From assembly GCA_964597575.1 (NCBI GenBank), contig CAZQXB010000001.1:964-64963 (forward strand): a stretch of DNA of 64,000 nucleotides, in the 5' to 3' direction. Below are positions 7,910 to 54,017 of the stretch, in pieces. A program made the position numbers and the translations under genes. The notes beneath the pieces are model-generated. The model was not told the origin of the DNA. It saw nothing but the letters and a program-made list of their open reading frames with translations, and ran no database searches. Each line of letters opens with the position of its first letter. Within the stretch, counting starts at the first letter, position 1. Origin of the DNA: an uncultured Gammaproteobacteria bacterium. GTDB taxonomy: Bacteria > Patescibacteriota > Patescibacteriia > Magasanikbacterales > UBA922.

Positions 7910-8110
7910 TTACCCTCCAGTATACTGACTAAAAAGCCCAAAGACGTAATCTAAGAAACTTCCTCCGAAATAGACGGTCAATACCAGCAAAAGAAGGCTA
8001 AGAAAAACACACCCGCCACACCCCGAAGACTCCAGGATCGCCTTACGATCTTCATCTGTTACACCAAGATCTTTTAATACCTTATCTTCGATAATTCCTG
8101 GAGGGGTCAT
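7910..8110 (-). CDS. Small membrane protein (66 aa, 1 TM, CGGC motif)
   Basis: Its ATG overlaps the stop of the upstream gene (ATGA), indicating translational coupling. Confidence 0.4.
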   Translation of the reverse strand: MTPPGIIEDKVLKDLGVTDEDRKAILESSGCGGCVFLSLLLLVLTVYFGGSFLDYVFGLFSQYTGG

Positions 8111-14845: not shown

Positions 14846-14960
14846 AGTTCCTGGCACTGGCCTACTCTTGCCTTGCGACTACCATTGGCGCTGACAGGCT
14901 TAACTGCCGAGTTCGAGATGGGATCGGGTGTGGCCCTGTCGCTCATAGCACCAGGAACAA
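14846..14960 (-). rRNA. rrf: 5S rRNA
   Basis: The reverse complement contains canonical 5S segments (ccgatcccatctcgaactcggcagttaagc...). Ends are approximate, +/-5 nt. Confidence 0.85.
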
Positions 14961-15007
14961 TATACTCCATGATTTGTACCCAACAAAAAAATGTATTCAA
15001 GCACGTG

Positions 15008-18400
<3,393 letters not shown>

Positions 18401-18736
18401 AAAACACAAAATTGTACTTCCGCCTATTTTATATACTCTATAAAATAGATGTGTTGCTTACATTTGTTGGTTGGTACGTCAATTGTAATGGGCAATACTC
18501 CAGCACAGTCAGTCTGTCAGCATCGAAACAGTCACACGACTTTCCAAAATGTTTTTGGACAATCGTGTATTTATTTCACGAAAAAAACCGCGTCGTCGCG
18601 GCCTATGGGTCGCACGTCTGACGTCTTGGTTTGGTCACTGGTTTTACCCAGTGGTTAGTTGTAACACGGAGAAGCGAATGTTACTGTGCCAAACCCAGAG
18701 GTCTAGAGGCTTTTCAGCCAGACGTGGTCCTTTTGA

Positions 18737-23115: not shown

Positions 23116-23382
23116 TTACAATCCGATAATCGCACTTCCCCCACTTACTTCTTCTTGAATACCACGTACCAACGGGTGTTTTTTTAATTCTTGCAGAACC
23201 GCCGCACGCATTTTCCCCTCTCCAATACCATAAATCACTCGGCACGCGCTCACATGTCGAAGTGATAAGCGAGCAAGTTCTTGATCAAGAGTTATAAGCG
23301 CGTCCGTAATCGTGCCCGAAATATGCAAATCAATCACAGGGAGATCCGCTCCAATTGACGCTAAAAGTTCAAGGTCTTTCAT
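23116..23382 (-). CDS. Smr-domain protein (small MutS-related)
   Basis: IDLHISGTITDA...IYGIGEGKMRAAVLQELKKHPLV matches the Smr consensus. Confidence 0.6.
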   Translation of the reverse strand: MKDLELLASIGADLPVIDLHISGTITDALITLDQELARLSLRHVSACRVIYGIGEGKMRAAVLQELKKHPLVRGIQEEVSGGSAIIGL

Positions 23383-24638
23383 AGGGGTCGTTCATCTGGG
23401 TACACCTCCCATGCATGGGTGATGTCTGAAAAAAAACGAATGACAGCCTCTTTTTTTCCTTCTCTTTCAACAACATCTTCATAAAAATTCTCACCCATTG
23501 ATGTGGGAATCATTTGTTTTCCTTTGTGAAATGAAAGTTCGTACTGTGGCAAGGCTCCACGGAATTCTTTTTTCTCGCGAAGCTCTTTCAGTATTTCTTG
23601 ACCCAGGCGAACTGAGGTGCGAAAATGTTTTGTTCCGGGAACCGGCATAGCATGAGAAAAATAATGAAGTTCAACTCCTTCCTTTCGGAGGACATGCCAA
23701 AGATCTCCAATAATTTCGGCTGAATCATTTATACCTTTCAAAAGCACTGTTTGATTATACAACGAAACACCTACACGGCGCATGCGGCGAAATACAAGAA
23801 CAGCTTCATCTGTTATTTCTTGGGGATGATTTGCATGCACACCAAATCGAAGAGAGATACCTTGTGGTTTTTTTGTCCACGCTTCTTCAATTATTTTTTG
23901 ACATGAACTTATAAAGTGTTCAGTAAAACGAAATGGATTATGGAGCCACGCACGGGTGTTTACCCGCACAATTGTGATATTGGGTAAAAGTGCAATGTCA
24001 CGAAGACGAGAAAAGAAAACTTCATCCGTGAGTACCAAAGGGTCACCTCCACTTAAAAGTACTTGGTACGCGGTTTGGCTTTCAGAAATTATTTTAAGTG
24101 CATTCTTCCACTCAGCCTCACTCGTATCTGTTGGCACATTCTGAAGCAATGTTCTTTCTTTCTCAAAACAAAACCGGCAGAAGCTATGACAGGTGCTGGT
24201 CAAGCGAAGTAAAATAATATCCGGATATTTTTGCTGGATGAATCGATTTTGATTATGGAAAAAATCTTCTGGCTGTTCCCATACTTCTGTATATGAAAAG
24301 GTATCCAAAATATTTTCTTCACGTTGTGGAAGATGCTGTAGAAGAATAGGGTCTTTTGAATCTTCCCAATGAATAAGAGAAGCAAGAAATGGAGTGAGTC
24401 GAAATGAAGAGATGGTTTCCTTCGAAAATGTTTCTAGGTGTTCTTGGATGTACGGCGGAATCAAAAAAAACCGCGAGAGATGTTCGGGTTTCCGAATACT
24501 ATTGGCAAGCTGCCACTGCCAATTTGTCCAGCATTCTTTTTGCTGGATATCTTTTTTCATAGAAATGGACAGTGTAGTAGCAAAAGAGATAGATATAGCA
24601 ATGAAACGACGATATGAGCCTCCGCTGCGTTTGTCCAA
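23379..24638 (-). CDS. KamA-family radical SAM protein (lysine 2,3-aminomutase / EpmB-like)
   Basis: The CxxxCxxC cluster is in TSTCHSFCRFCFEKERT. The KamA-like N-terminus reads W.NW.WQLANSI. The true start is probably the internal Met (MKKDIQQ, about 24560). Confidence 0.8.
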   Translation of the reverse strand: MDKRSGGSYRRFIAISISFATTLSISMKKDIQQKECWTNWQWQLANSIRKPEHLSRFFLIPPYIQEHLETFSKETISSFRLTPFLASLIHWEDSKDPILLQHLPQREENILDTFSYTEVWEQPEDFFHNQNRFIQQKYPDIILLRLTSTCHSFCRFCFEKERTLLQNVPTDTSEAEWKNALKIISESQTAYQVLLSGGDPLVLTDEVFFSRLRDIALLPNITIVRVNTRAWLHNPFRFTEHFISSCQKIIEEAWTKKPQGISLRFGVHANHPQEITDEAVLVFRRMRRVGVSLYNQTVLLKGINDSAEIIGDLWHVLRKEGVELHYFSHAMPVPGTKHFRTSVRLGQEILKELREKKEFRGALPQYELSFHKGKQMIPTSMGENFYEDVVEREGKKEAVIRFFSDITHAWEVYPDERPL

Positions 24639-24774
24639 TAAACAAAAGAATTGTATTAGTCAGTAATTTCATCTTAATCCCCTTTGCTGTTTTTGTAACT
24701 CTCTCAGTTTGGCATAAAATTAGGAAAGAATCAAGATAAGAGAGGGATGAAATTTCGGTTGCGAATACGAACAC

Positions 24775-24987
24775 AATTATAAAACCCCTCAAAAGAAGGG
24801 TTTTATAATTGTGCCGCGAGAGAGACATCTCACTCGTCGCTTCACTCCTCTTGGGAACACCTTCAGGTTTTCCCAACCTTTCCTCGGCAAGTGAAACCTC
24901 ACGGTTTCACCCTTCCCTAGTTCGAGTCTCTCACTCCACCGTAAATCATAAAAAAAGATCCCACAAATGGGATCTTTTTTTATGATG
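24775..24987 (-). repeat. tRNA-3'-linked structured module, copy B (same family as 4614-4835)
   Basis: Read on the minus strand after tRNA-Leu: a 17-bp perfect hairpin (24946-24986); a segment antisense to the T-arm (gagagactcgaact); a core gaggaaaggttgggaaaacctgaaggtgttcccaagaggag; cgagtgagat; a direct repeat tctctctcgcggcaca of the tRNA 3' end; and a terminator (24781-24806). Confidence 0.5.
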
Positions 24988-25069
24988 TGCCGCGAGAGAG
25001 ACTCGAACTCTCACGCCCGAAGGTGCCTGCTCCTAAGGCAGGTGCGTCTACCAATTCCGCCATCGCGGC
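24988..25069 (-). tRNA. tRNA-Leu (anticodon UAG) with a long variable arm
   Basis: The reverse complement reads GCCGCGA-TG-GCGG-AATTGGTAGA-CGC-A-CCTGC-CTTAGGA-GCAGG-var-GAGAG-TTCGAGT-CTCTC-TCGCGGC-A. No CCA is encoded. Confidence 0.85.
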
Positions 25070-53703: not shown

Positions 53704-53790
53704 GGAAGAGTGGCTGAGTGGTTGAAGGCACCGCTCTCGAAAAGCGGCAGGCCCGCAAGGGCCTCGTGAGTTCAAATCTCACCTCTTCCG
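53704..53790 (+). tRNA. tRNA-Ser (anticodon CGA) with a long variable arm
   Basis: GGAAGAG-TG-GCTG-AGTGGTTGAA-GGC-A-CCGCT-CTCGAAA-AGCGG-var-GTGAG-TTCAAAT-CTCAC-CTCTTCC-G. No CCA is encoded. Confidence 0.85.
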
Positions 53791-54017
53791 CACAATAATA
53801 AAATGACCCATACGTTCGGGTCATTTTATTATTGTTGTGAGATGAAGAGGCGAGATTTGAACTGGGGAAAGTTTGAAAACCGGTAGGTTTTCACCTCTAT
53901 TGAGGGAAGGTTGGGAAGGGGTGGAAACCTCTTCCCAAAAGGAACGAAGTTCCGATGTTCAAATAGCGAAGCGCTCACCTCTTCCGCAAAAAGAACACCA
54001 ATCAGGTGTTCTTTTGT
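53791..54017 (+). repeat. tRNA-3'-linked structured module, copy C
   Basis: A 17-bp perfect hairpin (53793-53834). A 20-nt antisense match to the tRNA-Ser T-arm/acceptor (gaagaggcgagatttgaact, one mismatch). A core gagggaaggttgggaagg...ccttcccaaaagga. A direct repeat ctcacctcttccgca (53974-53988). A terminator aagaacacc-aatc-aggtgttctttt. Confidence 0.5.

Follow-up and report, generated by a model that had tools for sequence, protein, structure and literature searches.

A candidate family of non-coding cassettes behind tRNA and tmRNA genes of Patescibacteria, with arms matched to each host gene

Introduction

What is the structured stretch that follows the tRNA-Leu(UAG) gene of this bacterium, and why does the same plan recur behind other tRNA genes close by? 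The locus lies in a 64-kb stretch of contig CAZQXB010000001.1 (assembly GCA_964597575.1), the whole of which we call the window. An earlier note on this DNA had described a module (copy B) between the tRNA-Leu gene and a KamA-family gene, together with two similar modules in the window (copies A and C). From a base-pair exchange between copies A and B it had concluded that the core of the module is a selected RNA structure rather than a decaying duplication, possibly acting as a leader or insulator of the KamA-family gene. Here, we compared copy B with other copies of the module and with orthologous loci. The core adopts a fold that is under selection and specific to one strand, its flanking arms match the tRNA gene that it follows, and the unit as a whole is being gained, lost and degraded. 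Mobility, the mechanism of insertion and any function are what we infer from these observations: we see an even chance that copy B is a member of a non-coding cassette family not described before, selfish, mobile and non-autonomous, whose arms are rebuilt from each target.

Results

The arms of copy B are copies of its own tRNA

On the minus strand, copy B begins behind tRNA-Leu(UAG), a gene without an encoded CCA whose discriminator is the A at 24988, and consists of the parts listed in Table 1. The perfect hairpin that had been noticed directly behind the tRNA (hp1) is present, with a stem of 18 base pairs (bp) rather than 17. It is flanked by a run of A residues before it and a run of seven T residues after it, and is similar both to the lone terminator of a module-free orthologous site (L070) and to hp1 of two further relatives (L071 and L072); judging from these sequence features, it is probably the native, bidirectional intrinsic terminator of tRNA-Leu. 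Next comes a spacer that has TGGAG in common with the same position of a copy behind tRNA-Asp (L042), as read by eye from the sequences. The antisense arm (a') is, as had been proposed, an exact reverse complement of a tRNA stretch (13/13 in local alignment); it covers tRNA positions ~52-65, that is, the T-loop and the 3' strand of the T-stem, and ends in GAAC(T), the point where the conserved core starts.

The core hairpin and the cgagtgagat element of the earlier note were both recovered, as parts of a four-way junction. The direct repeat of the tRNA 3' end (sense arm, a) also stands, at 17 nucleotides (nt) instead of 16, and spans tRNA G59 to the discriminator, plus CA. The two arms pair with each other and close the junction (gagagac with gtctctc; duplex energy -18.9 kcal/mol). 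The hairpin that ends the module (hp2) scored as terminator-like, in agreement with its earlier description as a terminator, and its sequence is 79% like that of hp2 in copy A.

The arms track the host gene across the family

The segment before the core is, in other copies too, the reverse complement of the copy's own host gene from G53 across the T-loop and the 3' strand of the T-stem, plus 0-7 nt of the acceptor. The rule seen in copy B (a reverse complement that ends at GAAC) applies to 10 of the 13 listed alignments, with perfect matches of 12-18 nt and a longest run, in copy C, of 19 nt with 1 mismatch. The sense arm repeats the host sequence in direct orientation, starting at about position 57-61 and continuing 1-10 nt past the discriminator (15-37 nt in total); its acceptor part has decayed in L021, L042 and the copy behind a transfer-messenger RNA (tmRNA) gene. 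The junction GAGTGAGAT is itself a copy of the T-loop, with T55C56 reading GA, and it keeps the host's position 57: alignment columns 4 and 130 pair as CG in seven copies and as UA in six. In a second subtype (C, L005 and L021) the T-loop copy is intact, and a 9-nt agcgNagcg mini-hairpin stands between it and the T-stem strand. Both junctions between core and arms fall within G53-T54-T55-C56, the one stretch common to all tRNAs and tmRNA. A single long palindrome, with the hp1 loop at its centre, is made up of the tRNA 3' end, hp1 and the antisense arm.

Cognate arm duplexes have energies of -11 to -27 kcal/mol and are, in every copy, stabler than the mean of the duplexes with the arms of the other copies; for five copies, some non-cognate arm pairs as well as the cognate one or better. 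When modules A and C are folded alone, a' pairs with the sense arm and closes the four-way junction. In the minimum-free-energy fold of the whole transcript from the tRNA to hp2, a' pairs with the tRNA T-arm across hp1, and the cloverleaf is lost. A closing helix mimicking a full acceptor/T-stem minihelix, as a substrate of RNase P, RNase Z or aminoacylation, was considered and dropped: the acceptor part is unpaired in copy B and L036, so that such mimicry is not a feature of the family.

The core fold is under selection and strand-specific

A covariance model (R1), comprising helices H1, H2 and H3 and the pairing of the T-loop reverse complement with junction J4, was built from five copies and used to realign 15 full copies. 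Pair counts rest on this alignment, the MAFFT alignments A2-A5 having been left out because H1 and the arms were mis-registered in them. In the R1 alignment, which is fitted to the model and holds near-duplicate rows (L001 close to L042, and L012 close to L007a), standard pairs occupy 88.0% of the pair cells, compared with 72.5% after shuffling, and none of 500 shuffles reaches 88.0%. Sliding the partners by 1-3 columns either way lowers pairing to 30-56%. Changes on both sides of the pair occur in 22 of the 29 pairs.

H1 is fully paired (100%) and all eight of its pairs covary, across the types GUGAAACC, GAGAAAAC, UGGGAACC, GUAAGGGG and GUGGGGAA, with loops that are mostly GNRA. The apical half of H2 covaries between AACC-NGAA-GGUU and GGGG-UGGAAA-CCCY; the invariance of its basal 7 bp is uninformative, since these were fixed by the search patterns. 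H3 also covaries, its two inner pairs being tandem G.A in 11 copies and Watson-Crick in four, among them copy A, whose H3 is Watson-Crick throughout. The exchange from which covariation had originally been argued is present, copy A having the compensatory pair ttaggaa/ttcctaa and copy C ttgggaag/cttcccaa, but this change from G-C to A-U is a single event confined to copy A (GC in 14 of the 15 copies, AU in one), and the stronger covariation lies in the other helices.

On the tRNA strand, G.U pairs outnumber A.C pairs by 10 to 1, an excess which assigns the fold to that strand. The conclusion that the core is a selected structure and not a decaying duplication thus holds, with covariation in H1, the apical half of H2 and H3 and with clean shuffle and slide controls; its being RNA is a part of the claim that the same data do not establish. 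The folded molecule may be RNA or single-stranded DNA; the latter, too, forms stable G.T pairs and stable GNRA and GNA loops. The GCGNAGC mini-hairpin, a motif known as an ultra-stable DNA hairpin, recurs across copies.

The cassette is gained, lost and decaying as a unit

Orthologous loci were fetched via the photolyase and PNPase homologues. At L070, photolyase is followed by a near-identical tRNA-Leu(UAG), a single terminator and then KamA, with no module. At L073, L074 and L075, tRNA-Leu stands behind PNPase, again with no module, and at L071 and L072 the module behind hp1 is truncated, diverged and of another subtype. A tRNA-Pro gene carries a module in L007 and none in the otherwise near-identical L012. 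The cassette is therefore gained, lost and decaying as a unit. Truncated copies might be the ends of longer islands, but a search of L071 and L072 found neither the second half of the module nor a repeat of tRNA-Leu at a distal position. The truncated module behind tRNA-Leu of L072, from the metagenome-assembled genome (MAG) CAZYEQ, contains a run of 10 N (5590-5599), either an assembly gap or a masked stretch.

The cores of copy B (tRNA-Leu), L042 (tRNA-Asp) and L007a (tRNA-Phe) are 92-95% identical, and those of A, B and C in the window 42-65%. This pattern shows that several subfamilies coexist and that at least one of them has recently reached different tRNAs in sister genomes, with arms matched to the host.

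At three loci (L001, 2885-2910; L047; L066, 1585-1607), the tRNA-Asp body upstream of hp1 and the module has been replaced by unrelated AT-rich DNA, and a diverged 3' fragment of the gene remains. This looks like the integration of a larger element into the T-loop region of the same tRNA-Asp; ordinary integrase-type events would thus also strike these genes, as a separate phenomenon.

Copies, host genes and carriers

Pattern scans and the covariance model yielded 12 further full copies, and the contigs that could be placed are all from Patescibacteria (candidate phyla radiation, CPR). An exact-pattern scan of 185,579 species genomes gave seven loci, of which four, from three genomes, are true modules (L001, L004, L005 and L007); a scan of metagenomes gave 61 loci, with nine true modules and chance matches for the remainder. 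Two scans of viral contigs returned no match, and neither did blastn of the module against phage and plasmid collections. Besides one tmRNA gene, the additional copies have eight more tRNA genes as hosts (called with ARAGORN; Table 1), and L065 follows a tRNA-like 3' end for which ARAGORN makes no call. The cassettes measure ~160-190 nt plus their own terminator (insert ~190 nt), contain no open reading frame (ORF), and sit directly downstream of the intrinsic terminator of the host gene, always on its strand.

L025 holds two tandem modules behind tRNA-Asp and, behind its tmRNA module, the truncated start of a second one. In the first module behind tRNA-Asp (7861-8010), both arms and H1 are of the usual form, with H2 swapped for a different, longer set of hairpins; this module scores only 17 bits with R1, so that the family has structural variants that the search patterns would miss. 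At L005 (2044-2418, minus strand), in a Candidatus Nomurabacteria carrier, a tRNA with an anticodon-loop intron of ~300 nt precedes a C-type module. The intron mode of ARAGORN names this tRNA Asn(gtt), and we read its loop as cuGUAaa.

Every carrier that could be placed is a CPR bacterium. The best named relatives of the RpoB encoded in the window are those of Candidatus Magasanikbacteria (78-82% identity), which makes the host of the window a member of the Patescibacteria. Its near relatives (91% RpoB identity, with a syntenic S15-NYN-PNPase-photolyase locus) are the MAGs CAZYEQ and CAZKAD, titled 'uncultured Gammaproteobacteria', and the JACCDG/JACCDN metagenome contigs. The Gammaproteobacteria label of L004, L007 and L072 (CAZYEQ01) and of L001 (CAZKAD01) appears wrong, because their PNPase and photolyase, and the RpoB of a near-identical JACCDG contig, are nearest to those of the window and of Candidatus Magasanikbacteria.

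The only short-read contig with the photolyase of the window (L069, Logan SRR13355620) ends at its position 4628 inside module B, equivalent to ~24890 of the window, which is consistent with a multi-copy repeat breaking the assembly.

The three copies of the window

Copies A, B and C follow a common plan, each with arms fitted to its own tRNA; both the sequences and the R1 scores bear out the shared architecture that had been claimed for them. With the covariance model, copy B scores 115 bits, copy A 78 and copy C 60 (E 4e-32 to 2.5e-15), and no further copy is detected in the 64 kb; a 28-nt core pattern (up to 3 mismatches) occurs twice, compared with 0.00 occurrences expected from shuffles. 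Copy C has the intact T-loop copy gttcaaat (53957-53964), followed by the 9-nt mini-hairpin agcgaagcg (53965-53973). The hp2 hairpins of copies A and B have, like hp1 of copy B, the G+C-containing stem and following T-run of intrinsic terminators, and were called by the terminator scan. Downstream of copy A lies a convergent TIGR00375-family ORF, and downstream of copy C a convergent fusion of major facilitator superfamily (MFS) and spermidine synthase domains; copy B lies upstream of the KamA-family ORF (23379-24638), on the same strand.

Three of the four tRNA genes in the window are followed by a module. The fourth, tRNA-Ile(UAU) (3640-3713, minus strand), has neither terminator nor module, and the next gene begins a few bases on. 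Bacteria rarely have a tRNA-Ile with this anticodon.

Table 1. Modules of the window with their parts, and host genes of copies at other loci
Feature	Position or locus	Strand	Detail
tRNA-Leu(UAG), host of copy B	24987-25069	minus	ARAGORN; Rfam tRNA 58.9 bits
Copy B, hp1	24946-24985	minus	18-bp perfect palindrome tcataaaaaaagatccca/tgggatctttttttatga, 4-nt loop tttg; from sequence
Copy B, spacer	24933-24945	minus	13 nt, tttacggtggagt; not host-like
Copy B, antisense arm a'	24919-24932	minus	14 nt, gagagactcgaact; exact reverse complement of tRNA agttcgagtctctc
Copy B, conserved core	24827-24927	minus	four-way junction; covariance model R1 115.4 bits, E 3.7e-32
Copy B, core H1	24891-24910	minus	GUGA loop
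Copy B, purine-rich junction of core	24877-24890	minus	ttgccgaggaaagg
Copy B, core H2	24851-24876	minus	ttgggaaaacc-tgaa-ggtgttcccaa
Copy B, core H3	24836-24848	minus	tandem G.A
Copy B, core junction J4	24827-24835	minus	gagtgagat; T-loop copy with T55C56 -> GA
Copy B, sense arm a	24810-24826	minus	gtctctctcgcggcaca; 17/17 direct repeat of tRNA
Copy B, hp2	24775-24809	minus	aattataaaaccc...ggggttttataatt; terminator-like in terminator scan; repeat family D3
tRNA-Arg(CCG), host of copy A	4542-4614
Copy A	4615-4832	plus	R1 77.7 bits
Copy A, hp1	4614-4656	plus
Copy A, antisense arm a'	4669-4683	plus	cgccaggagtcgaac
Copy A, core	4676-4778	plus
Copy A, sense arm	4781-4794	plus	cctggcgaggacac
Copy A, hp2	4795-4832	plus
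tRNA-Ser(CGA), host of copy C	53704-53791
Copy C	53792-54016	plus	R1 60 bits
Copy C, antisense arm a'	53844-53863	plus	gaagaggcgagatttgaact
Copy C, core	53856-53962	plus
Copy C, sense arm	53974-53988	plus	ctcacctcttccgca
Copy C, hp2	to ~54016	plus
tRNA-Phe host	L007, L012
tRNA-Pro host	L007
tRNA-Asp host	L042, L025
tRNA-Glu host	L036/L068
tRNA-Gln host	L021
Intron-bearing tRNA host	L005
tmRNA host	L025 (4121-4516)		arms fit tmRNA T-arm

Discussion

Being either empty or decayed at orthologous tRNA-Leu sites, and having closely similar cores at tRNA-Leu, tRNA-Asp and tRNA-Phe, the module behaves as a non-autonomous mobile cassette would. Its landing site may be a tRNA-like 3' end plus terminator, which the cassette would rebuild at its own 3' end; recreating the landing site there would explain the tandem copies. 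The arms may be re-templated from the target at insertion, through copy-choice or target-primed synthesis anchored on the universal T-loop GTTC at both junctions and on the terminator palindrome. Under such a scheme, synthesis would snap back at the palindrome and run in reverse along the tRNA end as far as G53, then jump through GTTC microhomology to the donor core, and a second GTTC switch would return it to the target, so that 'position 57-73 plus trailer' would be duplicated. We conjecture that copy-choice is the least complicated way in which the target could template both arms. Transcription that reads through from the tRNA could plausibly express the cassette as a trailer, and the mobilising enzyme would act in trans. 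More tentatively, and with the odds against it, we propose that a small structured RNA or single-stranded DNA lands behind any tRNA-like gene and at each insertion writes sense and antisense copies of the T-arm into its own closing helix, either by a GTTC-anchored snap-back or template switch or by guiding an RNA-guided recombinase or a reverse transcriptase whose gene would lie at another place in CPR genomes.

Several points weigh against the reading as a mobile cassette. Neither the window nor the module-bearing loci contain a gene for a reverse transcriptase, a recombinase or an HUH nuclease, and no shared mobility protein was found around the modules by all-against-all blastp of the ORFs of 10 loci or by Pfam and NCBIfam searches with 30 ORFs of the window. 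The re-templating mechanism is conjectural, and copy-choice leaves unexplained both the non-host spacer of B and L042, in which the antisense arm past the T-stem is not host-derived, and the retention of the 5' part by truncated copies. Moreover, hp2 of copy A (4795-4832) and hp2 of copy B (24774-24811) are alike although the hosts and first hairpins of these copies differ, which simple target duplication does not predict. With protein identity of only ~70% and intergenic DNA that is barely alignable, L070 is a distant empty site, and the loci compared include no close filled/empty pair with exact junctions. Scans for sigma-70 promoters inside the modules gave none that convinced us. Finally, the density of copies, three within 64 kb when the genome measures ~0.9 Mb, leaves room for a host function.

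Such a function would be that of a cis element of tRNA expression, in which a' of a read-through transcript would pair either with the T-arm and 3' end of its own tRNA or with the sense arm. It might be a three-segment switch for the folding, 3' processing or decay of the read-through precursor tRNA, or RNase Z or RNase P might excise from it a stable trailer RNA, akin to the RtT RNA of Escherichia coli. We consider a host-serving element unlikely, but several observations speak for it: the two placements of a' predicted for the transcript and for modules A and C alone, the invariable position on the tRNA strand straight behind the terminator, the exact coincidence of the sense-arm end with the tRNA 3' end, and the presence of the cassette at most of the window's tRNA genes in a very small genome. 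On the other hand, the tRNA-Leu orthologues of four relatives lack the cassette and those of two have it in decayed form, which makes it dispensable. It is also rare among species genomes, the acceptor part of its sense arm has decayed in three copies, and the same core stands at different tRNAs of sister genomes. We regard as rather improbable, though not far-fetched, that the fold acts in single-stranded DNA instead of RNA and that a tRNA-targeting tyrosine recombinase inserts such a strand, with the arms annealed to a duplex T-arm copy (a mimic of attB), extrahelical bases and a branched tip. The inverted arms with AAC...GTT pointing inward, the tandem G.A or 9-nt bulge in the closing helix and the recurrent GCGNAGC mini-hairpin agree with this; tRNA and tmRNA 3' ends are classic integrase targets, integrase-type insertions adjoin the modules of L001 and L066, and the strand-specific G.T evidence suits DNA as much as RNA. 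However, if single strands were exchanged as at attC or CTX sites, the antisense arm would stay of donor type, yet it fits each new host; the core is conserved in sequence, unlike the variable tips of attC sites; and no recombinase gene is found nearby, either in the window or at the module loci.

The remaining two explanations fare worse. A scar of integrase-mediated integration (attL/attR remnants of a deleted island) or a decaying partial tRNA duplication would account for the truncated copies and for the att-like direct repeat of the tRNA 3' end, but it is largely refuted by covariation, the core of 100 nt having been kept with compensatory changes across 15 copies. Antisense arms that fit their hosts, a core shared by upwards of 10 different host genes and a cassette without ORF add to the difficulty, and a classical element moving among tRNAs would leave chimeric tRNAs; we therefore rate a scar as very improbable. 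As for a leader, riboswitch or insulator of the KamA-family gene, the suggestion of the earlier note, the upstream position of copy B on the same strand is in its favour, and the data otherwise contradict it to the point that we find it hardly credible. L070 has tRNA-Leu and then KamA without a module, copies A and C face convergent genes, the terminator-like hp2 stands between module B and KamA, the other copies lie behind other tRNAs and tmRNA with unrelated neighbours, and Rfam searches with E up to 10 gave no match to a riboswitch or T-box.

Comparison with known systems

At gathering thresholds, Rfam 15 recognises only tRNA and rRNA in the window and places the module in no family, RtT, T-box, HEARO, ROOL/GOLLD, self-cleaving ribozymes and tRNA-like structures included. 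Permissive searches (E up to 10 for copy B, up to 1 for copy C and the L025 variant) returned only chance matches to microRNAs (miRNAs) and small RNAs (sRNAs), attributable to the long palindrome of tRNA 3' end, hp1 and a'. Apparent resemblances of GAGGAAAG to the CR-I region of RNase P, of AGGGUGAAACC to the T-box or to the CR-II region of RNase P, and of the junctions to motifs of the hammerhead, the hairpin ribozyme or box C/D were dropped, since none was matched by a model or conserved across copies. The open-access literature that we searched contains no account of such an element.

The RtT RNA of E. coli, with the 178-bp repeats found in its tyrT operon, is likewise a non-coding unit straight downstream of a tRNA which ends with a repeat of the tRNA 3' end, may occur in tandem and could be released as trailer RNA by tRNA-processing enzymes. 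It is enterobacterial and tied to one tRNA, whereas the cassette is re-matched to many tRNAs and tmRNA; it has neither an antisense T-arm copy nor a four-way-junction core, and was not among our Rfam matches at E up to 10. Integrative elements that target tRNA and tmRNA genes use the same stretch, from T-loop to 3' end, leave the tRNA intact and are flanked by a direct repeat, just as a repeat of the tRNA 3' end (15-37 nt) bounds the insert here. The cassette is, however, only ~200 nt long, carries no integrase and has an extra, inverted copy of the target, and its combination of host-specific arms with cores 92-95% identical is not what site-specific recombination yields.

With integron attC sites and attP(+) of CTX phage, the cassette shares a strand-specific single-strand fold made from inverted repeats, inward AAC/GTT, extrahelical bases or a bulge, and a branched tip. 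The inverted repeats R''/R' of attC read RYYYAAC ... GTTRRRY; the boxes of the cassette (inward ...GAAC / GT(T/G)..., with tandem G.A or bulge) do not fit the RYYYAAC consensus. Its centre, in contrast, is conserved in sequence (42-95% identity, with covariation), its arms are tRNA copies of which the antisense one is of host type, and it has no integron integrase, cassette array or dif site and is surrounded by housekeeping genes. The msr-msd region of retrons is a multi-hairpin RNA of like size closed by inverted end repeats (a1/a2), but these are not tRNA-derived, no reverse transcriptase gene adjoins the cassette, and Rfam gives no match.

Miniature inverted-repeat transposable elements (MITEs) and repetitive extragenic palindromic (REP) repeats, short interspersed nuclear elements (SINEs) and the Mauriceville retroplasmid of Neurospora provide parallels for a short, non-coding, multi-copy and patchily distributed element that depends on enzymes in trans and has a tRNA-related 3' end, perhaps with template switching onto tRNA; SINEs and the Mauriceville plasmid are known for tRNA-like 3' ends and tRNA-plasmid hybrid cDNAs. 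MITEs have fixed terminal inverted repeats and a short target-site duplication, and insert at many unrelated sites; the terminal repeats of the cassette are, instead, locus-specific and copied from the target, which is strictly chosen (only behind tRNA and tmRNA terminators). The cassette is also bacterial (CPR). No cognate recombinase or TnpB/IscB gene adjoins any copy, as would be the case for the bridge RNA of IS110 or the omega RNA of IS200/605. A conserved structured core joined to sense and antisense arms that are rewritten for each host is a combination that none of the compared systems has, and we rate the cassette as a new kind of element.

If the reading as a mobile cassette is true, CPR bacteria, whose genomes are among the smallest known and were thought to be poor in mobile DNA, bear an unrecognised class of non-coding cassettes that target tRNA and tmRNA genes with arms re-programmed for each target. 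This would be a new way for an element without genes to choose and copy its target; it could point to an unknown enzyme, be it a reverse transcriptase, a template-switching polymerase or a guided recombinase, and it bears on the role of tRNA 3' ends as universal landing pads. Should the host-serving element be correct, a three-way pairing switch made from the T-arm of the tRNA itself would represent a new type of control over tRNA. In practical terms, the repeats break short-read assemblies at tRNA genes, and their palindromes mimic miRNA and sRNA matches in Rfam scans.

Other observations in the window

No 16S gene lies in the 64 kb, so that 16S is unlinked from the 23S locus, a pattern typical of CPR bacteria. 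The 23S rRNA match (14849-18401, minus strand) comprises 3373 nt compared with the 2925 nt of the model, which indicates ~450 nt of insertion(s), and the 5S gene comes after it.

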